A stretch of DNA of 64,000 nt from a virus. Below are positions 263 through 62,717 of the stretch, in pieces; position 1 is the first letter of the stretch; each line of letters starts with the position of its first letter. The notes under the pieces were generated by a model that searched no databases, had not been told where the DNA came from, and was given only the letters and a program-made list of their open reading frames with translations. The DNA is taken from IMG/VR virus record IMGVR_UViG_3300026196_000005; one strand, 5' to 3'. Both the position numbers and the translations under genes were made by a program.

Positions 263-1302
263 GCAAAATTGATTTAGTAACAGACGGCGATGCTGCTTTT
301 GTGGCTGGTGGATTGAAGGGGATAAAAATACAACATGATGCTGATACAATAATCAAACATGCTTATACCGGTATTGAAAATATGTTTCTTCAAAATGAAG
401 CTAGATTTTTAAAGGCTTTAGATGGTACTGGATTTACTCCGAAATTTATCAAATTTGATTATAGTGATGCTCCCTCTAGTTTATCTCATTTAATAGTTGA
501 AGATTTAGGTAAGTCCGAACCAGTTACAGATGAAACAATTTTCCGTCGCAATTGCGCTTTACTTCTTTACACTCTCAAAAAACACGGCATCCGTCATGGT
601 GACATCTCAACTAAAAACATCATTGTCAAAAACAATAAGCCAATGCTGATTGACTTTCACCAAAGCAAATTTGATAATGAACCGGGGCCAGATAAAAGAC
701 CGGAGGGTGATGCCTTTAATTTGTGGCAAGCTGCTTTGGAATTATCGCCTGACACATCGCGTCATATTCGTAAGTGGCAGGCAATAAGACCCTGCATACA
801 GGGTAACTCTTTAATAGATTTTGGATGTGCTGAGGGTGACTATTTACTTTTTGCTTTAACTGAAAAAGCATCATGGGATATGGGCAGGTTTTGGGGAATG
901 GATCGAGATGTTAGTATTCCTAAATATGGCAACGATGCTTTAAAAGAAGTATGGTTAAGTGGAGAGGTGGAATCAAGTAATATCGTTTGGCCTATTTGTC
1001 ATGGTAATGTTGTTTCTACTAGTCCGATAAAGTATAAAACTGATACTATATTTTTTATGTCAGTATTTGCCCATATTGCCAGGAATGAAAGTTATAATCG
1101 GGCAGAATACACCCTTATGCGGTTGATTGAAAAATCAGATCAATTATTCTTTGAGACTCAACTTGTCGGAGATGGCCCAGGTGTTCACAAAACAGATGAT
1201 GACGTTTACAATATGCTTAAGCAATATGGCAAGGTTGAGAAATTGGTAACAATTCCCGTACACGGTAGGGATGCAAGTAGGACGGTTTGGCGCATAACAT
1301 GA
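259..1302 (+). CDS. fusion protein: kinase-like N-domain plus class I SAM-methyltransferase-like C-domain
   Basis: Kinase catalytic-loop-like HGIRHGDISTKNIIV followed by LIDF (DFG-like). C-terminal LIDFGCAEGDY resembles SAM-binding motif I. Lies directly upstream of a large glycosyltransferase. Confidence 0.5.
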   Translation: MSKIDLVTDGDAAFVAGGLKGIKIQHDADTIIKHAYTGIENMFLQNEARFLKALDGTGFTPKFIKFDYSDAPSSLSHLIVEDLGKSEPVTDETIFRRNCALLLYTLKKHGIRHGDISTKNIIVKNNKPMLIDFHQSKFDNEPGPDKRPEGDAFNLWQAALELSPDTSRHIRKWQAIRPCIQGNSLIDFGCAEGDYLLFALTEKASWDMGRFWGMDRDVSIPKYGNDALKEVWLSGEVESSNIVWPICHGNVVSTSPIKYKTDTIFFMSVFAHIARNESYNRAEYTLMRLIEKSDQLFFETQLVGDGPGVHKTDDDVYNMLKQYGKVEKLVTIPVHGRDASRTVWRIT

Positions 1303-4300
1303 CAATAAAACTTTACATTTCTCCTGACTATACAGGGCAAGAAGGCGACAAACCAGACGGCGGCATTCGGCGGGTAATAGAAGCCATGCAAAAATACTTG
1401 CCTGAATTTGGTATTGAGATTGTCAATACACCAGAAGAAGCCGATATTATTAATGCACATGGGGCAATGCCGGTTACTAAATTTGACAAGCCAATTGTAA
1501 GCTCATGTCATGGTTTATATTGGGCAGATTATGATTGGGGTGCAACAATGCACCGCGTTAATCAGTTGGTTATCGAATCAATGAAACGGGCAAAAGCAAC
1601 GACTGCACCCTCATACTGGGTACGCAATGCCATTACACGGGGCATGTTAATTGACCCAAAAGTCATCTATCACGGTGTAGACATAGATGAATTTACACCT
1701 GATGACAATCCAGCCGACTGGGTATTGTGGAATAAGGCACGGGTTGACCCTATATCCGATCCAGCTCCATTAAATGAATTGGCGCGTCTTATGCCTGATG
1801 TGCGATTTGTTACCACGTATGGGGGTGAGCGGAAAAATGTAAAGATTTTAGATGCTGTACCATATGAGCGCATGAAAAGCATTGTTGCTAAAGCCGGTGT
1901 TTATTTGGCAACGACGCGGGAAACTTTCGGCATTGGCACATTAGAGGCTATGGCTTGTGGCGTGCCTGTAGTTGGATGGGCATTTGGTGGACAGGTAGAA
2001 ATTATTAAGCAAGGTGTAACGGGTTATCTGGTTCCAGAGGGCGATTATGAGCAGCTAGAAAAAGCTATTCGGCTTGCTCTAAAAAACCGCGATGAACTTG
2101 GCAAAAACGCACGGCAAGATGTTATTGAACGGTGGCAATGGCGGGATAAGATTGAACAATATGCCGATGTTTTTAAGTCGGTTTATGATATTCATTGTCA
2201 GCCAAAAGAGCCAAAAGTAAGTGTTATTGTTACGAATTACAACCTAGAAAAATATCTTGAAAGTTGCTTAGATTCAGTTGTGAATCAAACTTTTACCGAT
2301 TATGAATGTTTAATCGTCGATGACTGTTCAACTGATAGCAGTTTAGACATAATCGAATTGTACAATCCTCACAAGCAAATTACCTATCTAAAAACCCCAC
2401 AAAATACAGGGTTATCAGGTGCAAGAAACCTTGGATTCACCCATGCAAAAGGCAAATACATAATCTATTTAGACGCTGATGATATGCTTGCTCCAAATGC
2501 GCTAGAGGTTTTATCCAACGAATTGGATAAAGATCAAGGCATTCATATTGCCTATGGTCATTTAGATTTAATCAACGATGACGGCACGAACCAGCGGCGT
2601 AATGCTAATAAAGATAAAGACTTTTTCCCGCCTGAACAATATAGTTGGCGTGGGCAATTGGCGCATTTGAATCAGTTACCATATGCCGCTATGATGCGTA
2701 GAGAAGTGCTAGAAAACAGCGGCGGGTATCGTGTGCGAGATTCACGTAATGAGGATGCTATTTTTTGGGCGCGTGTTACCTCTTATGGTTATATTGCCAA
2801 GAAAGTTACGCAGGCATCAACTTTAATTTACCGCCTACGTGGTGACAGTAAATCAGCTAATGAGATGCGTAAGTTTGGCAAGGAACCGAACTGGCTAGCA
2901 TGGTTGCCATTTCGCTTTGCCGATAAAGCTAAAGATGGTGAGAAAATAAGCCAGCGGCATAATGGCGAAATTCCCAATGCTCAGATAGTACCATTCGGGG
3001 CGCAAGGTTTGCCGCCTCGTTCGTGGGCAAGATACGGTAAATATTGGAATGTCAGACACCATCAAAACCCGGTATTGTCGGTGATAATTCCAGTAGGGCC
3101 AAACCATAAAGAATATGTTATTGACGCTTTAGATAGTTTGATAGCTCAAGATTTCCAAGACTGGGAAGCCATTGTAGTAAATGATACTGGCGAAAAGTGG
3201 ACAACCATACCGGGTGCATCATATGCCCGAATTGTGACACCAAAAGAAAAACATCCTGATGCGCGTGGTGCGGGTGAAGCGCGTAATGCTGGTGTAAAAG
3301 CTGCCAAGTCTGGATTGATTGTCTTTTTAGATGCTGATGATTATTTATTGCCGGGTGCATTGTCTACCCTGTATGAAGCGTGGCAATCGACGGATGGCAA
3401 TTGTGTAGTTTATGGCGACTGGCTAGTACCTAAAGGCGATGAATTGCCAGACTATTACAAGTCCTATGATTTTACTTGTGACATAAACAGCGATGATGTA
3501 ATTTTGCGACGGATTATTCACCCGGTAACGGCTTTATATCCCAGATGGGCGCATGAAAAAATAGGTGGTTTTAATATCACAATGCCAGCATGGGAAGATT
3601 GGGATTATCAGATTAAGATGTATGCCCAAATTGGCTTATGTGGTTTGCGAGTTGAGGAAGCCATTTTAGCCTATCGTCCAAATACCGGGTTAAGGCGCAA
3701 ATATGCAGCGTTTGAGGAAGCAAGTCCAGAAAAAAAAGCTGCTGTGAAAGCAGAAAATGACAAGCTAAAGAAAATACTTTATAATGAACATATTGATTAT
3801 TACAAGAGGCGCAAACCAATGGCATGCAAAAAATGCCCACAAGGCAAACCGTATAACAAAGCACTGGCAGAATTGCCACAATCTGATTTTGAGGCACTCG
3901 TAGCTAGAAATGGAGATGGTATGATACTTGAATACAAAGGGCCGATGTCTGGCAAATTTACAGTAAAAGGCGGGGCAAGTGGTAAGTCCTATCGAACAAT
4001 GCTAACGAATGATGGCATGTTGCTTTTTGATGTGCATCCTCAAGATGCTGAATCATTGAAACAACGTACACGAAAAGGTCAACCGCTATGGGTTGAGTTT
4101 AGTTTACCAGAGCGAAATACCACATTAAAAACTGAACCGATTAAAAGTAATGCGCCAAAATTGCCTGTCAATGATATTGTTATGGATGACATTTGGGCAG
4201 ATGTACCAGTTAAAGCTGCTGGCATGGGCATTGATTCAAGCAATGTTGAAGCAGCGTTAAATGTCATGGTTCCAGAATTTGATACCATTGATGATTTTCG

Positions 4301-4421
4301 TATTTGGATGAAAACGAATCCAGAACCAGAGGATTTATTGGTTGTTTTGACAACTGAGAAAAATCAGGATAAGCCGCGCAAGACCATCATTAAAGAAATT
4401 AATCGGGCGTTGAATGGATAA
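1287..4421 (+). CDS. multidomain glycosyltransferase (GT4-like plus two GT2-like domains plus C-terminal extension)
   Basis: GT4 E-x7-E motif ETFGIGTLEAMACGVPVVG. Two GT2 signatures (VSVIVTNYN...LIVDDCSTD...YLDADD and LSVIIPVGPN...IVVNDTG...FLDADD). 1044 aa. Confidence 0.85.
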   Translation: MAHNMTIKLYISPDYTGQEGDKPDGGIRRVIEAMQKYLPEFGIEIVNTPEEADIINAHGAMPVTKFDKPIVSSCHGLYWADYDWGATMHRVNQLVIESMKRAKATTAPSYWVRNAITRGMLIDPKVIYHGVDIDEFTPDDNPADWVLWNKARVDPISDPAPLNELARLMPDVRFVTTYGGERKNVKILDAVPYERMKSIVAKAGVYLATTRETFGIGTLEAMACGVPVVGWAFGGQVEIIKQGVTGYLVPEGDYEQLEKAIRLALKNRDELGKNARQDVIERWQWRDKIEQYADVFKSVYDIHCQPKEPKVSVIVTNYNLEKYLESCLDSVVNQTFTDYECLIVDDCSTDSSLDIIELYNPHKQITYLKTPQNTGLSGARNLGFTHAKGKYIIYLDADDMLAPNALEVLSNELDKDQGIHIAYGHLDLINDDGTNQRRNANKDKDFFPPEQYSWRGQLAHLNQLPYAAMMRREVLENSGGYRVRDSRNEDAIFWARVTSYGYIAKKVTQASTLIYRLRGDSKSANEMRKFGKEPNWLAWLPFRFADKAKDGEKISQRHNGEIPNAQIVPFGAQGLPPRSWARYGKYWNVRHHQNPVLSVIIPVGPNHKEYVIDALDSLIAQDFQDWEAIVVNDTGEKWTTIPGASYARIVTPKEKHPDARGAGEARNAGVKAAKSGLIVFLDADDYLLPGALSTLYEAWQSTDGNCVVYGDWLVPKGDELPDYYKSYDFTCDINSDDVILRRIIHPVTALYPRWAHEKIGGFNITMPAWEDWDYQIKMYAQIGLCGLRVEEAILAYRPNTGLRRKYAAFEEASPEKKAAVKAENDKLKKILYNEHIDYYKRRKPMACKKCPQGKPYNKALAELPQSDFEALVARNGDGMILEYKGPMSGKFTVKGGASGKSYRTMLTNDGMLLFDVHPQDAESLKQRTRKGQPLWVEFSLPERNTTLKTEPIKSNAPKLPVNDIVMDDIWADVPVKAAGMGIDSSNVEAALNVMVPEFDTIDDFRIWMKTNPEPEDLLVVLTTEKNQDKPRKTIIKEINRALNG

Positions 4422-8495: not shown

Positions 8496-8757
8496 GTGGA
8501 ATGGTTCTGATGTTTTGGCGGTTCCATTAAGGAATCGCCTAAACGCATCTATTCATTTTGGGCTAACCATACCGGGTTTTGTACCAGAATTCGAGGAGTG
8601 GGAAGCTGGGACAGCCGCTGGACTTAATATGTGGCAGTGGGAAAGCAATGAGTATCCGACTGAATTCAAAGCGCGGGTAATAGCATGGCATAGATTGCAC
8701 AACAGCATAGAGGCTCATAAAACGGATGTCAGCATACCAAAGCCTAAAAAGAAATGA
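8359..8757 (+). CDS. downstream frame of a putative G/GT frameshift product (gpT-like extension)
   Basis: +1 frame relative to 7941..8495, with a 137-nt overlap. Candidate shift site CAA UUU CGG at 8481-8489. No good independent RBS. Confidence 0.4.
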   Translation: MPAILNGCVAWRVQKRILQNFSKSLAVNPILHRRTWKARRRNFGVKWNGSDVLAVPLRNRLNASIHFGLTIPGFVPEFEEWEAGTAAGLNMWQWESNEYPTEFKARVIAWHRLHNSIEAHKTDVSIPKPKKK

Positions 8758-8760: not shown

Positions 8761-8792
8761 ATACCCTGTATGTTGGCAGGGTATTTTATTTT
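8761..8792 (+). terminator. hairpin built from an inverted pair of the iterated motif, followed by a T-rich run
   Basis: ATACCCTG (8761-8768) pairs with CAGGGTAT (8777-8784), then TTTTATTTT. Confidence 0.5.
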
Positions 8793-8807: not shown

Positions 8808-11800
8808 ATGGCACTAGAGAAAATAGGGGTTGAAGCCACAATTGAGGGGTTGTCATCTTTCCGGCGCGGCATAGGCCAGATGGATGATGATGTTCGTGGT
8901 TTTGGCCGTTCTGCTGATGGTATTGTCCCTGGCTTAAATAGTATGGGTGATTCGCTGTTAAAAATTGGCGGCATTGCGGCGGGTGCGTTGGTGGCTGGAT
9001 TAGCAGCGGCTACGACTGGCATAATTGCTTTTACTGGTAGTGGTATCAAAGCGGCAATCGACATGGAAGATCAAATGGGCAACATTGCCGCTGTAATGAA
9101 TACCACGAAAGATGATATTCAGCCGCTATCTGATTTGATTGTTGATTTAGGTATTGATCCCGGCTTAAAAGTCACAGCCGAAGAAGCTGCGAATGCTATA
9201 GAACTATTGGCGCGTAATGGTTTGACCATGCAGGAAATCTTAGACGGCGCGGCAAGGTCTACCGTTTTGCTGGCAAATGCGACGGGTGCTGAATTTGGCA
9301 ATGCGGCCAATATTGCTACTGATGCAATGGCTATTTTTAATATCGAAGCTAAGGACATGCAAGGGGCAGTTGACGGCATAGTGTCAGTCACGACTAATTC
9401 AAAGTTTACCATTGACGATTACAGCCTAGCTTTGCGGAATGGTGGAGCCGCAGCGGCTATTATGAATGTGTCAATGGAAGATTTTAATGCTGTAATTGCT
9501 ACTAGTGCTGATGAAATGGGCAGCGGTATGAAGGCGGGTACTGGGTTTAGGAATTTCCTAACCAGATTAACGCCTGCTAGTGACAAAGCAGCAGAGGCCA
9601 TGCAGCAATTGGGGCTAGTTACATCTGCTGGTACTAATATGTTTTTTGATGCCAACGGGCAATTGAAAAGCATGGCGGAAGTAAGCGGCATTTTGGAAAA
9701 TGCACTATTTGGCACCTCCACTGCAATGGTTGAAGTGGGCGGTCGAACGGCAGCGCAAAATGAAGAACTTGCTAGATTACAAGGTATTTATAATCGTACG
9801 CTAATCTCAATTCAGGATTATGAAACAGGGGTAAAAGGTGCTGGTTTATCAGATGAGGCCAGAGCTAATAAATTAGAAGATTTGCAATTACAACTTGCCA
9901 ATACGGCGGCGGTTATGGGGCCATTAAACGCCATACAGGGTGATTTAATCGAAACAACTAATACCCTAACTGATGCCGAAAGAAGCGCGTACTTAGAAAC
10001 CATATTCGGGGCAGACGCTTTAGGTACTGCTATTGCTCTTTCCAAAGAAGGGGCAGATGGTTTTGCAGAATTAGCCGCGTCAATGTCGGAAACAAAGTCA
10101 GCAGCGGCGGCATTGGAACGAATGGATTCTGTTGCTGGTGTAATGGAAATTATTAGCAGTGTTATTGACGGTTTGAAACTACAAATTGGACAAGCATTTT
10201 TACCGCTTATTAGAGATTTGGCAGATAATTTTTTGGTCTTTGTTCAGAATGTCGGGCCAAAGGTGGTAAAAGCATTTGAAAATATATCAGGTGGTATTAG
10301 TGAATTTGTTAGTTTATTGCAAGATGGCGAATCGCCACTAGATGCTTTTTTTGGTGGACTGGAAAAAGGCGGCATATCAAAAGATTTTATTAAGCAATTA
10401 AAAGATGCGGTTAAAGCAATAGATGATTTTGTCACGCCAATTATAGAATTTGTAAAAGACCATGCAAAAGAATTTAAGGGCGCATTAGTTGGTATCGGTG
10501 CTGTTTTGGGAGCTGGTATTATCGTATCCGTTCTCACCACAATTGGCGGTTTAATTGCTGCTTTAATTTCACCTATCGGCTTGCTAATTGTTGGATTTGC
10601 TGCACTTGGTGCGGCAATATCTCATTTTGGCGGTATTCAGCAGATTATTGAAAACATTCGCAATTTTATAACTGAAACTGACTTTGCCGCTTTGGGGCAA
10701 GATTTAATCACAAAATTTTTAGAGGGAATGTCTAATTTAGGCGAGTCTTTTGGAACATGGGCTGGCAACCTTTTAGTATCAATTACTGAATCAATAAATA
10801 ACATAGATTGGATAGCAGTAGGTGAAAGTGTCATTACATTTATTGGCAATGCTATAGCTGGGGCGGTTGGCTTAATTGCATTGGCAGTTACGGGATTATT
10901 TAATTTTTTCAAAGGAACCTCTGACTCGCAAGACTGGGCAAGCATTGGATTAGATTTATTAAACTCAATTTTAGATGCTTTATCTGGTTTTGTTGCTGGT
11001 GTATTGCCTGTCTTACAGGGTTGGTATCAATCATTTATCAGTTGGGTTCAGTCGGTTGATTGGCTGGCAATTGGCAATTCAATTGTCACATTTGTTTTGA
11101 ATGGCTTGAATAACTTTATTTCATTCGTTGGGGAAACACTATCGGGCTGGTGGACTTCGTTTACAACATGGGTGGATAGTGTTGACTGGGTGCAAATTGG
11201 CCTAAATATTGTGATGTTTGTCATCGAAGGTTTAGTAAATTTTGTAGCAAATGTAGCCGAAACTCTAGGCACATGGTATCAGGCATTTGCTGACTGGGTA
11301 GAATCAATCGATTGGAAACAGATCGGCTATGATATTGTCACTTTTATTATTGATGCATTTCAATTCTTTAATGAGGAAGTACCAGCAACACTTGATCAGT
11401 GGGCGCAAAATTTCGTTGACTGGGTAACCGAAACCGACTGGAAACAAATGGCAATCAATCTGATTGTCGATATGGTAGTCGGTTTGGGTGAATTCTGGTT
11501 TTATGCACAGCCTAAAATTCAGGCATGGTGGACTTCAATTAAAGACTGGTTTGATAGTATTGACTGGGCAGCATTGGGACAAACTATTATAGATGGTGTA
11601 GTAAGCGCAATTACTAATGGAGCCGCAGCTATTGCAGGTGCCATTGGCGATATGATACAGGGTGCTATTGATGCCGCAAAAGATGCATTAAATTCCCACT
11701 CTCCATCAAAGGTATTTTATGATATTGGCACAAATATCGGTCTAGGTTTGATTGGTGGCATTAATGCTATTGCGCCATCGGTGCAAGAATCAATCGCTGC

Positions 11801-38762: not shown

Positions 38763-38764
38763 AA

Positions 38765-41969: not shown

Positions 41970-42189
41970 TTACAAAATCATAATCTACAATGTCGAATTG
42001 CCAGAATTAGAATTGGCAATTGAAAAAGCAACCAACGCATACCGGGTAAAGTTTGGCAATGAGCCAAAAACATTAACAGTTGCACCCGGTATGGTTGTTG
42101 AAGCAAGTGAATTAATCGAAAGTAAAGACCTCCAACTCGCAATTGATAGGTTTTTTGCCAGTGGCGGAACAATTCAAATAGGAGAATAA
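41962..42189 (+). CDS. hypothetical protein
   Basis: 75-aa ORF overlapping the previous stop. Confidence 0.35.
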   Translation: MSDYKIIIYNVELPELELAIEKATNAYRVKFGNEPKTLTVAPGMVVEASELIESKDLQLAIDRFFASGGTIQIGE

Positions 42190-48100: not shown

Positions 48101-48136
48101 TTGATTAAACCCTGTATTTTGTGGTAAGGTGGCATA

Positions 48137-48700
48137 ATGAAACCAAGTGATTTTGATACACCAAAACATGCTGATTTTGTAGCTAATTACTTTAAGCTCA
48201 ATATGAATGGGACACGGGCTTATAAGGCTACTTATGATGAAAGTATGGGGGATAATTCAGCAGCGGCAAGTGCATCCGCTCTTCTAAGAAATCCTAAGAT
48301 TGCGGCTGCAATCAAATCGACACTTAAGGCTAGAATCTTAAGCACAGAAGAAATACTTGCTAGACTTGCTGAAATGGGACAATCTGCCCATGCTGATTAT
48401 GTAAAAGAAGATGGGACGGTTGACATTAAAAAAATGGTAAATGATGGCAATGCTCATTTGATTAAAGGCATTAAAGAAACGAAGTATGGGCGAGTGTATG
48501 AATTTCATGATGCTAAATCAGCACTTGAATTGCACGGCAAATATTACGCCATGTGGAAGGATAAATTTGAGATTCAACAATCCCCGCTTGAAAGTGAAGT
48601 TTTGCAGTTTCTTAAGAATGGCGACATAACGGCCGAACAGGTGTTGAAAACTTTAGGCGACAATGACAGGACGCGCCAATTGATTGCTAGTATAAAATGA
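48137..48700 (+). CDS. terS: terminase small subunit
   Basis: FVANYFKLNMNGTRAYKATY...AAASASALLRNPKIAAAI is a Terminase_2-like N-terminus; directly upstream of and overlapping TerL. Confidence 0.75.
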   Translation: MKPSDFDTPKHADFVANYFKLNMNGTRAYKATYDESMGDNSAAASASALLRNPKIAAAIKSTLKARILSTEEILARLAEMGQSAHADYVKEDGTVDIKKMVNDGNAHLIKGIKETKYGRVYEFHDAKSALELHGKYYAMWKDKFEIQQSPLESEVLQFLKNGDITAEQVLKTLGDNDRTRQLIASIK

Positions 48701-50629: not shown

Positions 50630-50732
50630 TGGTGTTGAGCTTTTTATTGTCTACCTAATTCATGACAAACGTCACCTATCAAAACCCTGTATAGTTTGCT
50701 ACAATCAAACAAACTTAACAGGAGGTGCTAAT

Positions 50733-51894: not shown

Positions 51895-52231
51895 CTGCAT
51901 TGAACCAAGCCGCTTAACATCCAAGCATTTACTTGCCGAATACCGCGAGATGTTACGTCTGCGCCATGCGCGGCCACGTCAGACGGGTGTAAGTAGCTAT
52001 AGGCTAGGTAAAGGTCATGTTTTGTTCTTTTACGATAAGGGCAGCTACCTACTGCAACGGCATGGGCAACTGCGTGATGAAATGAAACGGCGCGGCATGT
52101 CGCCAAACTTTGAGCTTGACCTTTCCTCATGGCCGCAATGGGCAATGGGAGATTGGATACCCGGTATTGATGCTCAGTTGCAAAACGTGGCAAGAATTAT
52201 TAATAGATTAGCTAATGGGCAGGAGAAATGA
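51881..52231 (+). CDS. denV: pyrimidine-dimer DNA glycosylase (T4 endonuclease V-like)
   Basis: The N-terminus MTRINCIEPSRLTSKHLLAEYREMLRL closely parallels T4 DenV [27 protein letters not shown]; also GHVLFFYDKGSYL. Confidence 0.85.
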   Translation: MTRINCIEPSRLTSKHLLAEYREMLRLRHARPRQTGVSSYRLGKGHVLFFYDKGSYLLQRHGQLRDEMKRRGMSPNFELDLSSWPQWAMGDWIPGIDAQLQNVARIINRLANGQEK

Positions 52232-52640: not shown

Positions 52641-52731
52641 TGTTTTACTGTGTTGTTTGTTATAATAATAGAAATTGCTAGTCGCGACGCGGTAACGTCC
52701 ACTAGCCCTCCGATTGAAAAGGAATCGAAGC

Positions 52732-53910
52732 ATGATAAATCATATCACGATTTTAAAAGCCTACAAGACAAAACTTAGACCAACCGCAAAGCAGCGGCGT
52801 TATTTTGGCGGCTGTTGTGGAGCTGCTCGGTATGTTTTTAATTGGGCGTTGGCCGATAGGATCGCCACTTATGAAGCTGGCGGTAAACCAAACAAGTTTG
52901 AGCAAAAGAGGCGTTTTAATGCTACCAAAGATGAGATTTGTCCATGGATTCGTGAATACCCATATTGCATAATGCAAGAAGAGTTTGACCATGTGGACAT
53001 TGCTTATCAAAACTTTTTCCGTCGCATTAAACAGGGTAAAGGCGGCAAAGAAACAGGATTTCCGAAATTCAAAAGCAGATACAAAGACAAGCAATCATTT
53101 GTTTTACGTGGTTCTATTCGTGTTGAAAATGGGCGTGTTAAGTTACCCCGTATTGGTTGGGTAAATTTAGCTGAATCTAATTATATTCCAGAGGATGTAA
53201 AAATAAACTTTGTGACACTTTCGGAAAGTGCCGGGGAATGGTTTATTAGCTTTCAAGTCGAACAAGAAACAGACGAACCCGTACCGGCAATGGGTGAACC
53301 GCTAGGCGTTGACGTTGGCATTAAATCATTGGCGGTTTGCTCAGATGGGAAAGAGTTTCCTAATGACAAGGTGCTGAAAACATACGAGAAAAAGTTAGCC
53401 CGTTTACAGCGCGAATTATCACGACGTGAAAAAGGCAGTTCTAACCGGACCAAAACAAAAGCTAAGATTGCCAAGCTTCACCAAAAGATAGCTAACAAAC
53501 GGGCGCATAACCTGCACAATGTAAGCAAGTATGTAACCGAACATAAACGGCCTTCGGTGGTAGTCATTGAAGATTTGAACGTTAAGGGCATGGTTAAAAA
53601 TCACAATCTGGCTAAAGCCGTTAGTGATGCTTCAATGTCTGAATTGCACCGACAAATTGAATATAAAGCAGCATGGAATGGGATTGAGGTTTTGAAAGCG
53701 GATAGATGGTTTGCATCTTCCAAAACATGCAGCTCCTGTGGCTGTATCAATTCTGAATTGACATTAGCCATGCGGATTTATAAATGCCCTGATTGCGGGG
53801 CAGAAATGGATAGAGACCTTAATGCTGCTATGAATTTAGCGGCTTTAGCTGAACCTGTGAAGCGCGGGGAATTGCCTGTGGAGTTGGGCGGTAGTGAACG
53901 CTCACTGTGA
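52732..53910 (+). CDS. TnpB-like / miniature type V (Cas12-like) RuvC nuclease
   Basis: 392 aa from ATG 52732 (the track starts at TTG 52714). N-terminal KAYKTKLRPTAKQRRYFGGCCGAARYVFNWAL is typical of the OrfB/TnpB family. RuvC-I LGVDVGIKSLAV, RuvC-II VVVIEDLNVKGM, zinc finger CSSCGC...CPDCG, RuvC-III DRDLNAAMNL. No TnpA nearby. Confidence 0.85.
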   Translation: MINHITILKAYKTKLRPTAKQRRYFGGCCGAARYVFNWALADRIATYEAGGKPNKFEQKRRFNATKDEICPWIREYPYCIMQEEFDHVDIAYQNFFRRIKQGKGGKETGFPKFKSRYKDKQSFVLRGSIRVENGRVKLPRIGWVNLAESNYIPEDVKINFVTLSESAGEWFISFQVEQETDEPVPAMGEPLGVDVGIKSLAVCSDGKEFPNDKVLKTYEKKLARLQRELSRREKGSSNRTKTKAKIAKLHQKIANKRAHNLHNVSKYVTEHKRPSVVVIEDLNVKGMVKNHNLAKAVSDASMSELHRQIEYKAAWNGIEVLKADRWFASSKTCSSCGCINSELTLAMRIYKCPDCGAEMDRDLNAAMNLAALAEPVKRGELPVELGGSERSL

Positions 53911-54011: not shown

Positions 54012-54225
54012 GTTTATCCTACAGGCGCGTGGGTGGTTTGAAAAGTTGTCACATTTTCCATTTCTCACTCCTCGTTTATCCTACAGGCGCGTGGGTGGTT
54101 TGGAATCATCATGAGCTATTGTAGCACGAAATCACGTTTATCCTACAGGCGCGTGGGTGGTTTGCTACTTCACAAGCGGCTAACTTTCAACGCCAAGTTT
54201 ATCCTACAGGCGCGTGGGTAGTTTG
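54012..54225 (+). CRISPR. mini CRISPR array: 4 x 29-bp repeat GTTTATCCTACAGGCGCGTGGGTGGTTTG, 3 spacers (33, 33, 32 bp)
   Basis: Repeats at 54012-54040, 54074-54102, 54136-54164 and 54197-54225 (last repeat has G>A at 54220). Spacers are unique. The repeat can form CCUAC-AGGCGC-GUGGG. Starts 101 nt after the TnpB-like stop. Confidence 0.85.
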
Positions 54226-54351: not shown

Positions 54352-56871
54352 TTGCGCTTACTGGTAAAGTTTATGACCAAAAATGGTACGCAAGAAAAAG
54401 CACTCATAGATGATCGGATATTGGATCGTACGGTTCAAAAGATACCAGACCAACAAACAATACCGGGTAGTGATGTTTTTGTTATCAATGTTTCGTCATT
54501 TGCTGATGACTTGCCAGCCTGGGGACGCAATGTCAGATTACGTGATAGGAAGCTGCGGGGGTTTTGGCCTACTGAACCGATTATAGCAAGTGCCATTCAA
54601 ACGATTGTGGCAGCGCGTGCCAATATGTCATGGTCGCTTGACGGGCCTCCTCGCACGGTTGGCATTTTGCAGCGTATGCTACAGTCATCCAACTTGGGCA
54701 AAGGCTGGCTTGACCTAAGAATTAAAGTACTTACTGACCAACTAACACAAGACAATGGCGCATTTGTAGAAGTCATTCGGCAAGAAGACGCGCCAAATAG
54801 CCCGGTATTGAATCTAGCGCATTTGGACGCAGGTAGATGCGTAAGAACTGGCATCCCCGAAACCCCTGTCATTTACTGGGATCGTGATGGCATAGAGCAT
54901 AAATTAGCATGGTATCAGGTATTGACTTTTGAGGATATGCCGTCGCCAATTGAGGAAATGAATAGTTTGCAGGTTTGCTTCTTAAGTCGCGTCTTAAGAG
55001 CAGCCCAAATTATAAAAGACTTTGGAATCTATAAACGGGAAAAAATAGCAGGGCGTAATCCTGGCGAGATACATTTTGTTTCAGGTGTTCAGACTAAACT
55101 AATCAACGACAAATTAGCCGATGACCAAATGAGTGCCGACAATCAAGGCTATAGCCGTTTCATGTTGCCAACGATTATTGGTAGTCTTGACCCTAATTCG
55201 ACTGTTAGCACGGCTTCAATCGACTTGCGTAGTGTTCCTGATGGATTCGACGAGGATACTACATTGCGCTGGTACATTGCCCAAATTGCAATGGCCGCTG
55301 GTGCTGATTATCAGGATTTTGCGCCATTATCATCTGGCAGCTTGGGCAGCGGTCAACAAAGTGACGTGCTAGACCGTAAGTCACGCGGCAAAGGGCGCGA
55401 AACTGATGTCAAGCTATGGGAACATAAACTAAATTTTAATGGCATCATGCCGCAATCGGTGACATTTGCTTTTGATGAAAAAGACATTGAGTCAGATATT
55501 CAAGCTGCTGAATTAGAAGATAAACAGGCAAAAACATTTTCAACTTATTATGATAAGGGTCAAGGCATTTTGTCGTTGCCAGTTATCCATCAAATGATGG
55601 CAGACCAAGGCATCTTAAAGCCTGAGTACATGGCACTTTTGAATACTACAGATGTGACACCCGATATTGTGGCAACGGATGATGAGCAAGCCGCAACTGA
55701 ATCAGAACTAAATGAGGCAAACAATACGCCGTCAACCGATACGGCAGAAATGCAACCGGAACAGATACCAGCGGAAATTAGAGCGAAGGAAAATGAAGAA
55801 TATGGATGCTTAATGTTAATGATGCCTGATCATATTAGACATGCCGCTTCGTTAATTGCTGCTAATTTAGATAGTGATGATTTGTTTCAGCCACCAGAAT
55901 CATGGTCAAGTTCACCAATTGTGACAGATTCCCATGTAACAGTTAAGTATGGATTTTTGGATAGTGTGACACCAAAGCAAATTACTTCACAGATTCAAAA
56001 ACTATTGCCACTTACTATAAAAATTGGCAATTTGGCATTATTCCAGAATGATGATTTTGATGTATTGAAGTTGAATGTTGACGGGGCAGAATTACGGCAA
56101 ATGAATGCAATTGTTAGTCAGTTGCCAAACGAGGATACACATCCAACCTACAATCCACATATGACTATTGCATATCTTAAACCCGGTATGGGTAAGAAAT
56201 ACCTAAAACTTGACAATCCTCTTAATGGTATGCGCGTATCTGGCGAGTTGGTTTATTCTGACAAGGGGGAGAGCCACACCACCATACAGGGTTCCATAAA
56301 AAAAAAGACAACCAAACAAATTGATACAGCGGATTATGAATCAGAATTAGCTGACTTAATGGCGGAAGCTGCCAATGGTACAATTACAGAAGATGAGTTC
56401 AGAATTGAAGCTGAATCATTGGTTGCTGCTGAAATTATTAATACGTATCTTTTGGCAAGCGGCAAAACCATAGCGCAATTGACAGATGAGGATCGGCAAA
56501 TCATATCAGACCAAACAGAAGTGAACCTTGACGCTATACCGGGTTTATATTTATCGGCTGTTGCTTTTGGTGGTGATGAGGATACGCCTACTGATGAACT
56601 GATTGATAATCGTGTAACGCTTTGGGGAGTTGGTTTACTGGCTGTTTACGCGCTTGGGTTTTTACGTGGTGGAGATGATGAAGATCATATTGGTTGGGCT
56701 TTAGGGCCAACCGATCATTGTAACTCTTGCCTAGATAATAGCCAGCGTGTTCTCACCCGTAGTCAATGGCGAGCTTTAGGAACATATCCAAAAAGTCACG
56801 AATTAGATTGCGGCGGCTGGCTGTGCCAATGTAGTTGGGTAGAAACTGATGAACCGCTCACAGGTGTTTAA
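54352..56871 (+). CDS. portal protein fused to a 2H-phosphoesterase (LigT/Acb1-like) domain and an SPP1 gp7/Mu F-like minor head domain
   Basis: 839 aa in the position after the terminase (start may be ATG 54373). Two HxTx motifs, HVTV (aa 528; nt 55933) and HMTI (aa 603; nt 56158). The C-terminal HCNSC...ELDCGGWLCQCSW resembles the gp7-family end motif. Confidence 0.65.
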   Translation: MRLLVKFMTKNGTQEKALIDDRILDRTVQKIPDQQTIPGSDVFVINVSSFADDLPAWGRNVRLRDRKLRGFWPTEPIIASAIQTIVAARANMSWSLDGPPRTVGILQRMLQSSNLGKGWLDLRIKVLTDQLTQDNGAFVEVIRQEDAPNSPVLNLAHLDAGRCVRTGIPETPVIYWDRDGIEHKLAWYQVLTFEDMPSPIEEMNSLQVCFLSRVLRAAQIIKDFGIYKREKIAGRNPGEIHFVSGVQTKLINDKLADDQMSADNQGYSRFMLPTIIGSLDPNSTVSTASIDLRSVPDGFDEDTTLRWYIAQIAMAAGADYQDFAPLSSGSLGSGQQSDVLDRKSRGKGRETDVKLWEHKLNFNGIMPQSVTFAFDEKDIESDIQAAELEDKQAKTFSTYYDKGQGILSLPVIHQMMADQGILKPEYMALLNTTDVTPDIVATDDEQAATESELNEANNTPSTDTAEMQPEQIPAEIRAKENEEYGCLMLMMPDHIRHAASLIAANLDSDDLFQPPESWSSSPIVTDSHVTVKYGFLDSVTPKQITSQIQKLLPLTIKIGNLALFQNDDFDVLKLNVDGAELRQMNAIVSQLPNEDTHPTYNPHMTIAYLKPGMGKKYLKLDNPLNGMRVSGELVYSDKGESHTTIQGSIKKKTTKQIDTADYESELADLMAEAANGTITEDEFRIEAESLVAAEIINTYLLASGKTIAQLTDEDRQIISDQTEVNLDAIPGLYLSAVAFGGDEDTPTDELIDNRVTLWGVGLLAVYALGFLRGGDDEDHIGWALGPTDHCNSCLDNSQRVLTRSQWRALGTYPKSHELDCGGWLCQCSWVETDEPLTGV

Positions 56872-58067: not shown

Positions 58068-59732
58068 ATGCCATATTCAGGAATACCGGCAGGTTCAGCC
58101 GCAGAGGCCAAAATAGATAGATGCGTAGAGCGCGTTATGGCAGGTGGTGAAACAGACAAAAGCGCAGCTATCGCTATATGCCGTTCTTCAATTGGAAAAG
58201 CTATGGATACTGAAAACGAAAAGCAAACAGAAGATTCTGCTAATTTTGTTCAAGTTGGAAAACAAACAGCAAAGGTTGAATCTGTGACAACAACAAATGC
58301 TGGAATGGCGTATGTTGACGCTTCAAAAATGGAACATGGCATAGGTGAAAGCATGGACTATTACGATCCTGTCATGGGCGCAATGTCTTTTTCTGAATTA
58401 GACACTATTGAACAGGCGCAAGAACAACATGGCAAGCTGCGCCGAATTGTTGACAACTTCATGCGACTGGCGCGTAACATTACTCAGAATCCAGCCATTG
58501 ACCCGACAGACCGCTCGGCGGCATTGCGAAATTTAACAGAAGAGATGCGTATGCGCCTTGATGCTGATTTTGAACGTGGGGAGCGTACCATCAGCATTCC
58601 AACGATTAACGGGAAATTAGACCCGGTATATTTGCAGAAATTGCAAGACTCAAAAGAAACGGCAGACGTTTCCCGCAATGAGTCTGTTTTTGATTCACCT
58701 CACAATACCGGGTTCAAAGTATTAAAAGCTGTTGACGGCTCATTTCGTTGGCTAGGTTGGGTATCAAATAAGTTTATGGATCGGGAAGGGGAGATTCTTA
58801 CCGATGAAGCGCACAAAGATTATATCGCATGGCTTGACGCACATCCTAAAGCCGCGCCGCAACTATGGACTTATCATACACCAGGGACGCAGAGGGAAAG
58901 CAAAGCAGACTTCTGGGCATATCTAAATGGCTTCTTAATTCTTGGGGGGAAACTGACAGAACAAGAGGCAAAGGTATTTGATAACGTAAGCGATGATTTG
59001 GGGATGTCGCATGGTTTTTACGTTTTGGGCAAGCAACAAAATTTGATTAATAAGTACAGAACTTTTGAGGCTACGGTTTTACCTCGCAGGGCAGCGGCTA
59101 ATCCGTGGACTGAATTTAATGTTAAGGAGCTAGGAAATATGGCACTCACAAATGACCAGCGTCAAATGCTGGCACAATTGCATGGCGAGGATTTTGCCAA
59201 TGCGCTGGAAGATGGAACCAAGCAACGCGCAGAAGTTCTCGAAAGTGCAGGAATTCAAAGTAAGCAAAAAGAAGATGGCGCAATTGGTGGTGGTAAAGCT
59301 GATGGTTCGATTGCTGGCAGTAAGGAAATTCCCGCCGATGCTGTTTTGGTAGAGGAAATTCAGGCTACTGAATCAGAAGTTGAAGCTGTTCTTAATACCG
59401 CAGATTTAGCAAAAAGCGTAGCCGATTTGGTAACAAAGCAGCTTAATCCCGCTGGACTGCATGAGGCAATTAAAACGCTTAATGAGTCTAATTCTGCCAA
59501 TGCAACGGCAATTGAAAATGTGGTTAAGCGGTTGGAAGCCTTAGAACTTTCTGACGATCAAAAGATGGCTAATGAACTTGCACCAAAAGTACCCGGTATT
59601 GACTGGATGGGTGGTTTTCGGGCAAGTGCTGAAAAAGCAACCGTTGTAACTGAAAAAGAAAAAGAAACATTTAAGAATTCTAAACCAGATGAAAGCTGGG
59701 CAAGTAACCTATTTAATTTGGGTGGAGGATAA
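58068..59732 (+). CDS. prohead protease / scaffolding fusion (putative)
   Basis: Position between portal and capsid. FRWLGWVSNKFMDREGEILTDEAH resembles the prohead-protease N-block. C-terminal coiled-coil, acidic scaffold-like region. Confidence 0.5.
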   Translation: MPYSGIPAGSAAEAKIDRCVERVMAGGETDKSAAIAICRSSIGKAMDTENEKQTEDSANFVQVGKQTAKVESVTTTNAGMAYVDASKMEHGIGESMDYYDPVMGAMSFSELDTIEQAQEQHGKLRRIVDNFMRLARNITQNPAIDPTDRSAALRNLTEEMRMRLDADFERGERTISIPTINGKLDPVYLQKLQDSKETADVSRNESVFDSPHNTGFKVLKAVDGSFRWLGWVSNKFMDREGEILTDEAHKDYIAWLDAHPKAAPQLWTYHTPGTQRESKADFWAYLNGFLILGGKLTEQEAKVFDNVSDDLGMSHGFYVLGKQQNLINKYRTFEATVLPRRAAANPWTEFNVKELGNMALTNDQRQMLAQLHGEDFANALEDGTKQRAEVLESAGIQSKQKEDGAIGGGKADGSIAGSKEIPADAVLVEEIQATESEVEAVLNTADLAKSVADLVTKQLNPAGLHEAIKTLNESNSANATAIENVVKRLEALELSDDQKMANELAPKVPGIDWMGGFRASAEKATVVTEKEKETFKNSKPDESWASNLFNLGGG

Positions 59733-59734
59733 AT

Positions 59735-61384: not shown

Positions 61385-61606
61385 TACCGTGTAAAATGTT
61401 AAAACCCTCTCAAATGCCCCTAGAATGCGCTGTAACGAATTTTGCCATTTTTAGGTAAGAACACACATGGGGGGTGCTCAAAACACTAGGGTTATTTCTA
61501 GCACTACATGCTTGTGTTTTCCTATGTGATATGCTTAAAATCGCTTACGCGGCGAATTTGGGGCAATCTATGCCGTGTCTCATTACTTCCACAAATCATA
61601 CAGGGT
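61385..61606. repeat. conserved noncoding element, copy B (see copy A at 23311-23515)
   Basis: Contains the same six modules as copy A in a different order and orientation. The core GGGGGGTGCTCAAAACACTAGGGTTATTT (61469-61497) is the reverse complement of A 23382-23412 (~27/31 identical). Confidence 0.7.
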
Positions 61607-61669: not shown

Positions 61670-62557
61670 ATGGCAAAAGATTTACTAGACAAAGTTTTAC
61701 AACAGGCACAAACTTCCGTCAATATTCGCTCCATTAAAGATGGTGTGACCTTTGCCACTTCTCCATTAAATTCAATTGATAGTGACCCGCTTATTGCCGA
61801 TGCGCTTAATCGCATATTGGCAGATTATGGCGATTCGGTATCGGTAAAAAATAAAGCAAAATCATTATTAAAGTTTGGTCTAAATCCGAACGTTGGAACA
61901 TCTCGTGCTACCATCTGGTACACCGGGCAAGATCAAGCAAATGAAACATATGTTGCTGATAATGTAAATTCAATTGATACAGTTAGCTCTAATAGTGGAA
62001 GCGATACGGAAGTTGTAACCGTTGAAGGCCATACAATGACGGGTGGCAATCGTACTTTTGTTGTTCAAAATATTACACTATTAGGTCAAAACAAAGCTAC
62101 ACTTGCTACGCCATTGAATAGATGTTCGCGGCTATATCATGCGGGACAATCTGCTACAAATTTAGTGGGCGAGATTTATGTATATGAAGATACGGCAATT
62201 GTAAGTGGAAAGCCATCCGATACTACTAAGATACATTTAACGGTAGCTGCTGGAAGAAATCAATCAGAAAAAGCCAGTACATCATTGGCTAGTACAGATT
62301 ATTGGATAGTGACCGGATTTAGGGGTTCGGTAATTGAAAAGACGGCGGCATTTGCAGATGTGGCCTTGGAAGTTAGACCAGTTGGTGGGGTTTTTCGGGA
62401 AGTGGAAGATGTAACCGCAAGTAATAATGCCGCTGGTATTTTGCAATTTGCACCTTATTTAATTATTCCTAAAAATTCAGATGTTAGGCTTGTTGCTGTG
62501 GCTGATGGCGCGGGTACAGAAGTATCAGGCTCTACTCAGGGTTTTTTAGCTAGTTGA
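61670..62557 (+). CDS. hypothetical beta-rich protein (possible virion protein)
   Basis: 295-aa ORF downstream of the capsid gene; no motif recognised. Confidence 0.4.
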   Translation: MAKDLLDKVLQQAQTSVNIRSIKDGVTFATSPLNSIDSDPLIADALNRILADYGDSVSVKNKAKSLLKFGLNPNVGTSRATIWYTGQDQANETYVADNVNSIDTVSSNSGSDTEVVTVEGHTMTGGNRTFVVQNITLLGQNKATLATPLNRCSRLYHAGQSATNLVGEIYVYEDTAIVSGKPSDTTKIHLTVAAGRNQSEKASTSLASTDYWIVTGFRGSVIEKTAAFADVALEVRPVGGVFREVEDVTASNNAAGILQFAPYLIIPKNSDVRLVAVADGAGTEVSGSTQGFLAS

Positions 62558-62717
62558 CACGCAATACCGGGTTATGTTACCCTATTAACATTCTGATACA
62601 TTTTTATCTCCTGTTTTTTGAGGGCATCCCAAACCGCTGAAAGGGGTGTCCTCTTTTTTTGTCTTAAAGAACGTGCTATTAACGCACAATGTAAGGTTGC
62701 TATTCTATTCTGTTTTT

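Follow-up and report, generated by a model that had tools for sequence, protein, structure and literature searches.

A nine-nucleotide word dispersed at high copy number through the genomes of an uncultivated tailed-phage lineage

Introduction

Short words repeated around a genome, such as the uptake signal sequences and DNA uptake sequences (USS/DUS), Chi, the highly iterated palindrome HIP1 and the FtsK-orienting polar sequences (KOPS), have each revealed a DNA-handling machine that reads the whole genome and, to our knowledge, have so far been defined on cellular chromosomes only. The present study describes a word of comparable abundance, ATACMGGGT (where M is A or C), in viral DNA, namely in a stretch of 64,000 nucleotides from IMG/VR record IMGVR_UViG_3300026196_000005. 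This stretch, termed the window, has a GC content of 41%, lies within a source sequence of 70.6 kb and represents the siphophage-like genome of an uncultivated tailed phage. Enrichment in Chi has been described in phages: LLS carries 23 Chi sites (1 per 1.86 kb), P1 carries 50 in 94.8 kb and MD8 carries 32 Pseudomonas Chi sites, and in all three Chi is denser than in the hosts and is the commonest octamer (PMC12315714).

The enrichment of ATACMGGGT is real, strong and out of the ordinary. The word is lineage-specific and dispersed, is subject to selection for copy number and exists in several dialects. It was first noticed in an annotation made from the letters of the window (the original prediction), whose interpretation is upheld with respect to selection at the level of the DNA, the balance of A and C at the degenerate position and a behaviour resembling USS/DUS or HIP words; the proposals of a host genome signature, of word-free imported cassettes and of a link to an FtsK/TraB-like translocase were not supported or were weakened.

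Results

Abundance of ATACMGGGT and selection on the DNA

An exact search located 70 copies of ATACMGGGT in the window, 39 on the forward and 31 on the reverse strand, divided equally between the A-form (35) and the C-form (35). In contrast, dinucleotide-preserving shuffles contain a mean of 0.65 copies and a maximum of 3, and 0.85 copies are expected from base composition. The two 9-mers are by far the commonest of the window. Both the estimate of about 70 copies against about 1 expected and the equal use of A and C were thus confirmed, and the start positions given previously were correct except that the copy at 25409(-) had been missed and that two starts are displaced (36817 instead of 36827, and 58705 instead of 58715). 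The 8-mer core TACMGGGT is present 76 times, 44 on the forward strand, as counted before, and 32 rather than 30 on the reverse strand, leaving six rather than five cores beyond the 9-mers. Variants with one mismatch, estimated previously at about 15, number 49 versus approximately 22 expected. Only three classes of variant are clearly raised, ATACTGGGT (6), ATACMGGGC (10) and ATACCCGGT (4), while most single-base neighbours occur 0-2 times each, indicating that the word is sharp. The copies are listed below by the coordinates of the 9-mer, with the state of the site in contigs of relatives (L186, L112, L122, L121 and L120) aligned to the window.

796-804 (+), ATACAGGGT
2404-2412 (+), ATACAGGGT, retained in L186
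3067-3075 (-), ATACCGGGT, A-form at the same site of L186
3207-3215 (+), ATACCGGGT, retained in L186
3366-3374 (-), ATACAGGGT, near-miss ACACAGGGT in L186
3682-3690 (+), ATACCGGGT, A-form in L186
4857-4865 (-), ATACCGGGT, A-form in L186
5618-5626 (+), ATACCGGGT, retained in L186
6303-6311 (+), ATACCGGGT, intergenic
8569-8577 (+), ATACCGGGT
8763-8771 (-), ATACAGGGT, intergenic, within hairpin 8761-8784
9933-9941 (+), ATACAGGGT
11655-11663 (+), ATACAGGGT
12947-12955 (-), ATACCGGGT
13079-13087 (+), ATACCGGGT
14690-14698 (-), ATACAGGGT
14851-14859 (+), ATACCGGGT, full extended consensus
15725-15733 (-), ATACAGGGT
15834-15842 (+), ATACAGGGT
16414-16422 (+), ATACCGGGT, full extended consensus
16747-16755 (-), ATACCGGGT
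17576-17584 (+), ATACCGGGT
19258-19266 (+), ATACAGGGT
19564-19572 (+), ATACAGGGT
22583-22591 (-), ATACAGGGT
23160-23168 (-), ATACAGGGT, left arm of terminator hairpin
23187-23195 (+), ATACAGGGT, right arm of terminator hairpin, followed by T-run
23274-23282 (-), ATACAGGGT, intergenic
25409-25417 (-), ATACAGGGT, newly located
25514-25522 (-), ATACCGGGT
25866-25874 (+), ATACAGGGT
26881-26889 (+), ATACAGGGT
27886-27894 (+), ATACAGGGT
28285-28293 (-), ATACAGGGT
28919-28927 (+), ATACCGGGT
33081-33089 (+), ATACCGGGT
33395-33403 (-), ATACAGGGT
35123-35131 (+), ATACCGGGT
35509-35517 (-), ATACAGGGT
35690-35698 (-), ATACCGGGT
36817-36825 (+), ATACCGGGT, start corrected
37709-37717 (+), ATACAGGGT
38649-38657 (-), ATACCGGGT
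38771-38779 (-), ATACCGGGT
39940-39948 (-), ATACCGGGT, full extended consensus
42039-42047 (+), ATACCGGGT
42084-42092 (-), ATACCGGGT, retained in L112
42703-42711 (+), ATACCGGGT, retained in L112, absent in the A-only L122
44416-44424 (-), ATACAGGGT, C-form in L112, A-form in L122
44474-44482 (+), ATACAGGGT, retained in L112
44761-44769 (+), ATACAGGGT, retained in L122
45025-45033 (-), ATACAGGGT, retained in L122
47442-47450 (+), ATACCGGGT, retained in L112
47654-47662 (+), ATACAGGGT
48109-48117 (-), ATACAGGGT, intergenic, 20 bp upstream of terS
48800-48808 (-), ATACAGGGT
49147-49155 (+), ATACAGGGT, retained in L121
49378-49386 (+), ATACAGGGT
50054-50062 (-), ATACCGGGT
50684-50692 (-), ATACAGGGT
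52159-52167 (-), ATACCGGGT
54460-54468 (+), ATACCGGGT
56181-56189 (-), ATACCGGGT
56284-56292 (+), ATACAGGGT, ATACAGGGC in L120
56536-56544 (+), ATACCGGGT
58621-58629 (-), ATACCGGGT
58705-58713 (+), ATACCGGGT, start corrected
59591-59599 (-), ATACCGGGT
61598-61606 (+), ATACAGGGT
62564-62572 (+), ATACCGGGT, intergenic

Codon tests were performed on 94 open reading frames (ORFs), which cover 91% of the window. The genic copies comprise 36 in sense and 27 in antisense orientation, 7 copies are intergenic, and all three phases are used on both gene strands. Shuffling synonymous codons within every ORF left 11.1 ± 1.8 copies in total, a figure that includes the 7 untouched intergenic ones. The 63 genic copies observed thus compare with ~4 after synonymous shuffling and ~0.6 after permutation of codon order, and as neither procedure reproduces them, selection is exerted on the DNA and not on the protein, as had been proposed. 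ATACMGGGT therefore owes its high copy number to selection exerted directly on the DNA. Survival of ~4 rather than 0.6 genic copies in the synonymous shuffles also indicates that the protein sequences are somewhat adapted to the word.

These data bear on the trivial explanations of ATACMGGGT, namely biased codon or dipeptide usage, a mobile mini-element present in repeated copies, or faulty assembly. Phase 0, encoding Ile-Pro/Gln-Gly, is indeed favoured (24 of the 36 sense copies) and, as noted, synonymous shuffling leaves more genic copies than permutation does. Nevertheless, an origin in codon or dipeptide usage is refuted by the codon shuffles and by the presence of copies in every phase, on both strands and between genes. 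A mini-element of the MITE (miniature inverted-repeat transposable element) or REP (repetitive extragenic palindromic) type would have a unit of more than ~25 nt, terminal inverted repeats and a mostly intergenic location, whereas only ~16 nt are common to the copies, the flanks beyond are unique and 63 of the 70 copies are genic. An assembly artefact is excluded because independent assemblies, from ENA and Logan, contain the same sequence, and relatives from the Joint Genome Institute (JGI) carry the word at orthologous and at new sites. An artefactual origin thus retains almost no credibility.

Anatomy, spacing and orientation of the copies

Alignment of the 70 copies revealed an extended word of ~16 nt, in which a C/A-rich 5' tract and a C at position -1 or -2 precede ATAC-M-GGGT, followed by T/A. 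The core measures 9-10 nt. Its informative 5' flank, positions -6 to -1, favours C and A (C at -6, A at -3, C at -2 and A/C at -1), with C at -1 or -2 in 61 of the 70 sites; the 3' flank is T/A. The flanking bias previously noticed is thus real yet asymmetric, the 5' side being C/A-rich. No covariation of note was detected between flank positions of the 70 copies, and inspection of the aligned copies indicated that hairpin formation is not a general property of the extended word. In the pooled sequences of window and relatives, extended 18-mers with the word as at 48109-48117 recur four times.

Copies are distributed evenly over the three thirds of the window (1.09, 1.12 and 1.06 per kb). Their spacing is Poisson-like, the number of short gaps being that of random placement, and the largest gap (4162 bp) is similar to the mean largest gap of 70 simulated random points (4360 bp). 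Stretches devoid of the word, interpreted in the original prediction as imported cassettes, are therefore not significant within the window, yet recently exchanged genes of relatives are poor in the word, as described below. Likewise, no clustering in a short cis-acting locus, of the kind known for the TraB recognition sequences (TRS) at clt, was observed across the 64 kb. Neighbouring copies alternate in orientation above chance (44/69, p ~0.01), a tendency also observed in L218, a distant relative (26/39, p ~0.03), and pairs less than 200 bp apart are mostly of the (-,+) arrangement (8/15, p ~0.015). With 39 forward and 31 reverse copies that alternate, the word displays no strand polarity. 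Selection thus acts on copy number and on both orientations everywhere, and not on particular positions.

Inverted pairs had been proposed to form the stems of three hairpins. This applies to the following structure:

23159-23196 (+), intrinsic-terminator-like hairpin, with 12-bp arms made of two inverted copies and their flank (AACCCTGTATGG / CCATACAGGGTT), followed by a T-run

The hairpin at 8761-8784 conforms in part, as it contains one copy and a partial copy, while the arms of the hairpin at 43.1 kb (43078-43103 and 43145-43170) present only partial likeness to ATACMGGGT.

Close relatives and turnover of the word

The word was identified in the following contigs of close relatives, which have GC contents of 38.5-41%:

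L112, 10 copies in 7.7 kb
L120, 6 copies in 14.3 kb
L122, 11 copies in 8.5 kb
L186, 9 copies in 5.8 kb
L231, 13 copies in 14.8 kb
L232, 10 copies in 7.2 kb

ATACMGGGT is absent from more distant relatives identified through the large terminase subunit TerL (45-67% GC). In alignable DNA, the relative retains a word at 17 of 30 window sites. Identity is 85% at the eight fixed positions, versus 73% in the flanks and 70-82% overall, and lost sites are usually 1-2 changes from ATACMGGGT. At conserved sites the degenerate position toggles between A and C, and its usage differs between contigs: L122, L232, L120 and L186 are almost A-only, L112 and L231 have mostly C, and the window is balanced (35:35). 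ATACMGGGT thus characterises this phage lineage.

Dialects and a second word in distant relatives

More distant relatives were collected as contigs encoding homologues of the FtsK-like protein of the window, except for L233, which was reached via its D5 helicase (44% identity). Two further dialects were identified. The first, C-ATACAAGG-C, is present in L218 (33 copies in 21 kb) and L221 (26 copies in 13 kb), corresponding to 1.6-2 per kb with equal orientations, and in L218 has a C/A-rich 5' flank with C at -1 in 37 of 40 sites. The second, CCCnCTCM-ATACTGAGC, was found in L233 (6 copies in 11.4 kb). The three dialects have in common an ATAC core and a C-rich 5' tract and differ in the 3' pentamer (ATAC-MGGGT in the window, ATAC-AAGGC and ATAC-TGAGC).

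A different word, the palindrome ACGGCCGT, occurs throughout L163, L164, L217, L218, L221 and L230 (GC 41-51%) at densities of 1-1.9 per kb; examples are counts of 31 (over 21 kb) and 32 (over 17 kb), versus ~0.3 expected. It is not enriched in the window (2 copies), while L218 and L221 carry it together with an ATAC-type dialect. In its behaviour ACGGCCGT resembles a HIP1-type word, here present in phages.

Genes exchanged recently contain few copies of the resident word. The tnpB gene of the window has only decayed ACGGCCGT sites, the ResIII gene of L230 is motif-poor, and an SNF2-like helicase-methyltransferase of 945-949 aa, found at 1147-3996 in L164 and at 8232-11069 in L231, is poor in both words. 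The 89% identity between its two versions points to a recent exchange between clades. L231, which carries ATACMGGGT, and L164, which carries ACGGCCGT, also have related tnpB genes, and with the common 945-aa gene this implies that the two are in genetic contact yet use different words.

A HIP-like function is a further possibility, in which a phage or host methyltransferase would mark the word and the dense methylated sites would serve repair, replication or self-marking, along the lines proposed for HIP1 of cyanobacteria and its alternates. A density of ~1 per kb is predicted by the methyl-directed repair model of Elhai (PMC4390886), the relatives carry a HIP-like palindrome at 1-1.9 per kb, methyltransferases are varied in these phages (that of the window is listed here), and a degenerate position restricted to A or C, both amino-bearing, is typical of read-out by a protein.

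29460-30308, N6/N4 methyltransferase, 282 aa

However, ATACMGGGT is non-palindromic; only ACGGCCGT of the relatives is a GC-rich palindrome as expected of a HIP word, and HIP1 itself has 0 copies in the window. Methyltransferases are non-orthologous between clades, the 89%-identical helicase-methyltransferase is found in L164 and L231 despite their different words, and the methyltransferases of the window (282 aa) and L231 (945 aa) differ although the word is the same. In addition, sites of modification systems are usually avoided rather than enriched. A HIP-like role for ATACMGGGT is consequently considered quite unlikely.

The phage replisome as candidate reader

Some DNA-handling protein must read ATACMGGGT. 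Two adjacent genes of the window are candidates:

43844-44743 (+), PrimPol with a C-terminal CHC2 (DnaG-type) zinc ribbon, identified by Pfam and alignment
44743-46293 (+), D5/P4-alpha-like superfamily 3 primase-helicase, identified by Pfam

The seven loci that carry an ATAC-type word and cover this region (window, L112, L122, L232, L218, L221 and L233) all encode PrimPol and/or D5. PrimPol is found beside ATAC-type words in the window, L112, L232, L218 and L221, and D5 homologues were identified in L122, L232, L218 and L233, all with ATAC-type words. In contrast, L164, L217 and L230 have the FtsK module, no PrimPol or D5 in 13-21 kb and no ATAC-type word (0/3), L164 presenting a DnaC/IstB-like gene in their place. 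L218 and L221, which use the same word, have PrimPols that are 88.5% identical, while their FtsK proteins are 59% identical. PrimPol/D5 thus appears to be the only association with the word that holds.

Zinc-binding domains of DnaG- and T7-type primases confer template sequence specificity. In addition, the PrimPol of NrS-1 recognises an 8-nt site, 5'-TTTGGTTA-3', and initiates immediately upstream of it (PMC8718748). The C at -1 or -2 of the word (61/70 sites in the window, and C at -1 in 37/40 sites of L218) is compatible with a purine start immediately 5' of a template site, and the per-strand spacing of ~1.6-2 kb is of the scale of Okazaki fragments. Furthermore, L231 and L164 are in contact and use different words, and no cellular genome with the word was found in the flank-dependent scans, which argues that the word is determined by the phage rather than by the host.

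On these grounds we tentatively favour the possibility that the copies are dispersed recognition or priming sites for the replisome of the phage itself, with PrimPol as a candidate reader of ATACMGGGT and the D5 helicase as a putative second reader or loader. The PrimPol-zinc ribbon, working with the D5/P4-alpha-type helicase, would read the word, and primers would be initiated, or the replisome loaded, at copies scattered over both strands. Having bound the 9-mer on the template, the enzyme would begin synthesis just 5' of the site, opposite the near-invariant C, and copy the C/A-rich tract. Each added site would slightly improve lagging-strand priming or re-priming on phage DNA, and sites would accrue by point mutation on both strands, wherever proteins tolerate them, until each strand had ~1 per 1.6-2 kb. 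As the enzyme changed, the word would drift with it, giving rise to dialects. A related proposal, which is possible but to be held with similar reserve, is that the word is a phage-encoded self-mark, sown by these siphophages into their own genome at 1-2 sites per kb on both strands and read by PrimPol-zinc ribbon/D5 or by another phage-encoded protein, with dialects that co-evolve and priming or loading restricted to phage DNA.

Several points weigh against the replisome as reader. The proposal stems from sequence comparison, and known primase recognition sites measure 3-4 nt, making a 9-mer-dependent primase unusual. By hand count there is no switch of polarity at any candidate origin (~18+/12- vs 21+/19-). 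The link to PrimPol/D5 derives from partial contigs, several of which were fetched via those very genes, and the sampling is therefore biased; L233 has no PrimPol beside D5 in the part covered. The zinc-ribbon residues of PrimPol display no interpretable difference between the A-only, mostly-C and mixed sub-dialects, and the palindrome ACGGCCGT of the relatives is left unexplained. Flank-dependent genome scans would miss a host with the 9-mer at a lower, Chi-like density, and P1 provides the example of a headful phage whose commonest octamer, Chi, is read by the host and occurs in both orientations (PMC12315714).

A further phage-encoded candidate is the FtsK/TraB-like translocase, for which the word could be a loading or guide sequence of the KOPS, SpoIIIE recognition sequence (SRS) or TRS type. 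Its gene belongs to a five-gene module at 34775-39337 (-) that is conserved in all 7 related loci compared:

34775-35023 (-), small ORF
34981-35919 (-), M23 peptidase
36662-37912 (-), membrane-anchored FtsK/SpoIIIE-like ATPase with C-terminal helix-turn-helix (HTH)-like tail
38301-38762 (-), orf153
38765-39337 (-), orf190

In some relatives DUF2227 or SLT is added, and the module looks like an envelope-spanning DNA-translocation or wall-remodelling unit. A guide function is suggested by the membrane anchor and HTH-like tail of the ATPase, by its proximity to the M23 peptidase and by its place within the module in 7/7 loci. The G-rich 3' half of the words (CAGGG, AAGG) also bears a loose likeness to KOPS (GGGNAGGG) and SRS (GAGAAGGG), and the resemblance to TraB GACCCGGA noted in the original prediction was borne out by no test. 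Nonetheless, the copies display no polarity (39:31, with alternation) and are not clustered as in the clt locus, and L164, L217 and L230 possess the module without an ATAC-type word. The HTH does not covary with the word, as L218 and L221 have the same word and differing putative recognition helices, while the helix of L164 resembles that of the window. A PDB profile search matched the motor domain only, and no gamma domain. The translocase link suggested in the original prediction is thus very unlikely.

Search for a host and host-determined readings

Scans of GTDB, metagenomes and IMG/VR were performed with flank-dependent forms of the word and have low sensitivity, so that a host with bare 9-mers at a Chi-like density would escape them. 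Within these limits, they yielded neither a cellular genome nor an unrelated phage with the word. When the 185,579 GTDB species genomes were scanned with the 18-mer CAACCATACCGGGTTTTA, which the window contains twice, 29 single matches were obtained, near the chance level. They show no local enrichment, ATACMGGGT being present at most twice in each surrounding 8-kb locus. A 3-Mb host with the same density and flanks would be expected to yield tens of CAACCATACCGGGTTTTA matches. A degenerate 20-mer, which fits 4 window sites, gave 43 metagenome matches, the sole strongly enriched contig being the phage relative L186. Extended forms of 17 and 20 nt retrieved only chance-level, unenriched contigs in two scans of IMG/VR, and among the matches listed for a plain 14-mer, most were chance and the one enriched contig was the relative L112. 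A literature search for the word strings returned nothing relevant. The idea of a host genome signature is therefore not sustained by the species genomes accessible to this flank-dependent 18-mer, nor by the metagenomes, where the only enriched contig belongs to a phage relative.

Other routes were equally unproductive. An exact 22-mer of the CRISPR (clustered regularly interspaced short palindromic repeat)-like repeat of the window had 0 matches in GTDB genomes, BLAST of the mini-array against plasmids and phages returned nothing usable for the host, and every long contig retrieved through tnpB homologues was a phage. Protein searches with TerL, FtsK and D5 gave 22-30% identity at best, mostly to actinophages, and thus no host clue.

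A marine gammaproteobacterial contig, L192 (JGI Ga0206679_10009762), has 4 ATACMGGGT copies in 6.6 kb, without the flank; together with L210 (Ga0315323_0002112) it contains 5 bare copies in ~17.6 kb, with a GC content of ~49% and housekeeping genes. A sister species of L192 (84% nucleotide identity) has no copies and near-misses at the same places. As a host lead this is weak, being borderline after correction and differing in GC (49% vs 41%).

The anatomy of the word is fitted best by an uptake signal, in which a naturally competent host would possess a DNA-uptake receptor that prefers the word and the phage would share a genome-wide enrichment of the USS/DUS type, but this requires a host at least as word-rich as the phage. 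The copies consist of a short, non-palindromic core of 9-10 nt with a weaker extended flank, at ~1 per kb, in both orientations and every reading frame with random spacing; an inverted pair serves as terminator, and dialects exist among relatives, with gain and loss by point mutation. The overall likeness to USS/DUS or HIP-type words noted originally is thus borne out in density, orientations, frames and the terminator-forming inverted pair. In contrast, chromosome-wide hyper-abundance in a competent host did not emerge from the flank-dependent scans, although the host may be unsampled: the CAACCATACCGGGTTTTA matches in the 185,579 species genomes were single, at chance level and locally unenriched, the metagenome scan gave only a phage relative, and the extended-form scans of IMG/VR remained at chance level apart from the relative among the listed 14-mer matches. 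No integrase was seen in the parts of the window scanned, which removes the usual route of accumulation through uptake and chromosomal recombination. Moreover, in Neisseria, mobile elements normally carry fewer DUS than the core genome. An uptake function is therefore held to be unlikely.

A Chi-like signal is a serious rival, albeit a somewhat improbable one. A host helicase-nuclease of the RecBCD/AddAB type would recognise the word and switch from degradation to recombination, and the phage would exceed the host density, thereby protecting and recombining its linear or concatemeric DNA. Phages LLS, P1 and MD8 provide published precedents (PMC12315714). P1 is a headful phage, and over its first 50 kb Chi sites are interspersed as 15+/12-, the same balance as that of ATACMGGGT. 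The window encodes a recombination module, with neighbouring and more distant nucleases:

25014-25673, ERCC4 nuclease
25688-27339 (+), recombination module, comprising a RecT-like annealing protein (25688-26407) and a PD-(D/E)XK exonuclease (26593-27339)
30349-30894, endonuclease VII

Phages with RecT and an exonuclease and without a recognised RecBCD inhibitor belong to a class that often accumulates Chi, and no such inhibitor was recognised among the window genes, of which many small ORFs are unannotated. Sites are gained and lost by point mutation, exchanged cassettes are motif-poor, and the mild alternation of orientation suits protection in two directions. A host with Chi-level density and no flank preference would escape the scans, and L192/L210 carry 5 bare copies in ~17.6 kb while the sister species has 0. 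However, all known Chi sites measure 5-8 nt and have no strong flank, whereas ATACMGGGT has a 9-10-nt core plus an informative 5' flank, and its sequence is unlike theirs. The enrichment is 100- to 1000-fold, with sites 2-4 times denser than in P1 or LLS. Relatives that are in genetic contact differ in their word or have none, and the gammaproteobacterial contigs constitute a statistically weak lead, without the flank and with a GC content of 49% vs 41%. The remaining probability belongs to a mechanism beyond the replisome, Chi, uptake, methyltransferase and FtsK readings.

Other features of the phage genome

The following genes were also assigned in the window:

1287-4421 and 14587-15810, glycosyltransferases
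8808-12602, tape measure protein
48137-48700, TerS
48697-50208, TerL
52714-53910 (+), tnpB

No tRNAs and no match to Rfam families were detected in the window, and megablast of 25 kb against GenBank phages gave no match. An ORF encoding a RIO1-like kinase and a 1044-aa triple glycosyltransferase (together 259-4421), and a further GT1 gene (14587-15810), are located among the tail genes. The glycosyltransferase region is as word-rich as the rest and its sites are kept in L186, suggesting that it is a long-standing resident and not a recent import. Two in-frame tandem repeats explain the other frequent k-mers of the window: ~15 copies of CAACGACGA at 18275-18407, inside ORF 17629-19641, and a GCTGCTGCTTAT-type repeat at 41805-41905, inside the Imm5-like ORF 41493-41969.

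Nested inverted repeats at 43023-43170, just upstream of HNH/PrimPol genes, comprise 26-nt arms and outer arms of 10-11 nt, are word-like at the arm ends only (ATACCC / GGGTAT), and could be an origin or a regulatory element. Clustered iterons were identified in two relatives, AGGTYTGGTA x9 in L112 (4949-5230) and TGACAAGAA x7 in L120 (1750-2150). As clustered repeats, both were rejected as dispersed words; they are probably origins bound by the D5/P4-alpha-type helicase. The window counterpart is a 19-nt tandem repeat at 46441-46480, downstream of the helicase gene.

Downstream of tnpB and on the same strand, a mini CRISPR-like array (54012-54225) consists of four 29-nt repeats, GTTTATCCTACAGGCGCGTGGGTGGTTTG, with spacers of 33, 33 and 32 nt. 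The same tnpB-array layout, with five 29-nt repeats, GTTCGCCCCACGTGGGCGGGGATGGTTTG, is present in L165 (10001-11544), an unrelated phage of GC 58% whose tnpB is 68% identical; there, enrichment of CCCACGTGGG proved to reflect merely the CRISPR-like repeats and not a dispersed word. Repeats of both arrays are type I-E-like with a common 3' end, GGTTTG. L163 and L164 have tnpB homologues and no array. The arrangement could represent a tnpB-linked array, forming a proto type V system, or else a mini-array through which the phage makes use of the host Cascade.

Comparison with known systems

An anatomy like that of USS, at a higher density than that of USS, defines an uncultivated phage lineage. 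If the word is determined by the phage, it constitutes a new way for a virus to mark or service its own DNA and an 8-16-nt handle for finding the reader protein; a true self-mark would involve the first virus-encoded enzyme that drives a USS-like, 100- to 1000-fold enrichment of its own site. If, on the contrary, it is determined by the host, in a Chi- or uptake-like manner, hosts could be assigned to this phage family directly from the signature, and a bacterial lineage not yet sampled would prove to use a novel recognition sequence. In both cases, ATACMGGGT offers an inexpensive, specific marker with which to detect this phage group in metagenomes.

Like the USS of Pasteurellaceae and the DUS of Neisseriaceae, the word has a non-palindromic core in the 9-12-nt class, weaker flanks, a density of ~1/kb and lineage-specific dialects, forms terminators as inverted pairs and turns over by point mutation. 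In contrast, it was seen only in a phage lineage, the scans having found no cellular genome, it comes with no evidence of competence or integration, and its sequence is unrelated to any known USS or DUS. Cyanobacterial HIP1 and alternate HIPs (PMC4390886, PMC5861425) similarly occur at ~1/kb and are replaced by other words in some lineages, and the palindrome ACGGCCGT of the relatives resembles HIP; ATACMGGGT, however, is not a palindrome and no cognate methyltransferase could be linked to it. KOPS, SRS and TRS are words of the 8-nt class read by a translocase, and the phage encodes an FtsK-like protein, but polarity, clustering and covariation with the translocase are lacking and FtsK-bearing relatives exist without ATACMGGGT. 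The Chi sites of P1, LLS and MD8 are likewise the commonest oligomer, dispersed in coding DNA, absent from imported modules and denser than a host-based expectation, occur in both orientations in headful P1 and come and go, whereas ATACMGGGT is longer, 2-4 times denser and unrelated in sequence, and relatives that exchange genes differ in word.

With respect to the template sites of primases, we know of no primase that needs a 9-mer or drives a 100-fold genome-wide enrichment of its site. The GTC-type sites of T7 gp4 and the site of NrS-1 PrimPol nevertheless resemble the word in being strand-specific with synthesis just 5', the PrimPol of the phage carries a fused zinc ribbon of the primase type, and the per-strand spacing of ~1.6-2 kb corresponds to the Okazaki scale. 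Matching none of the known members, ATACMGGGT belongs with the genome-wide recognition words exemplified by USS/DUS, Chi, HIP1 and KOPS.

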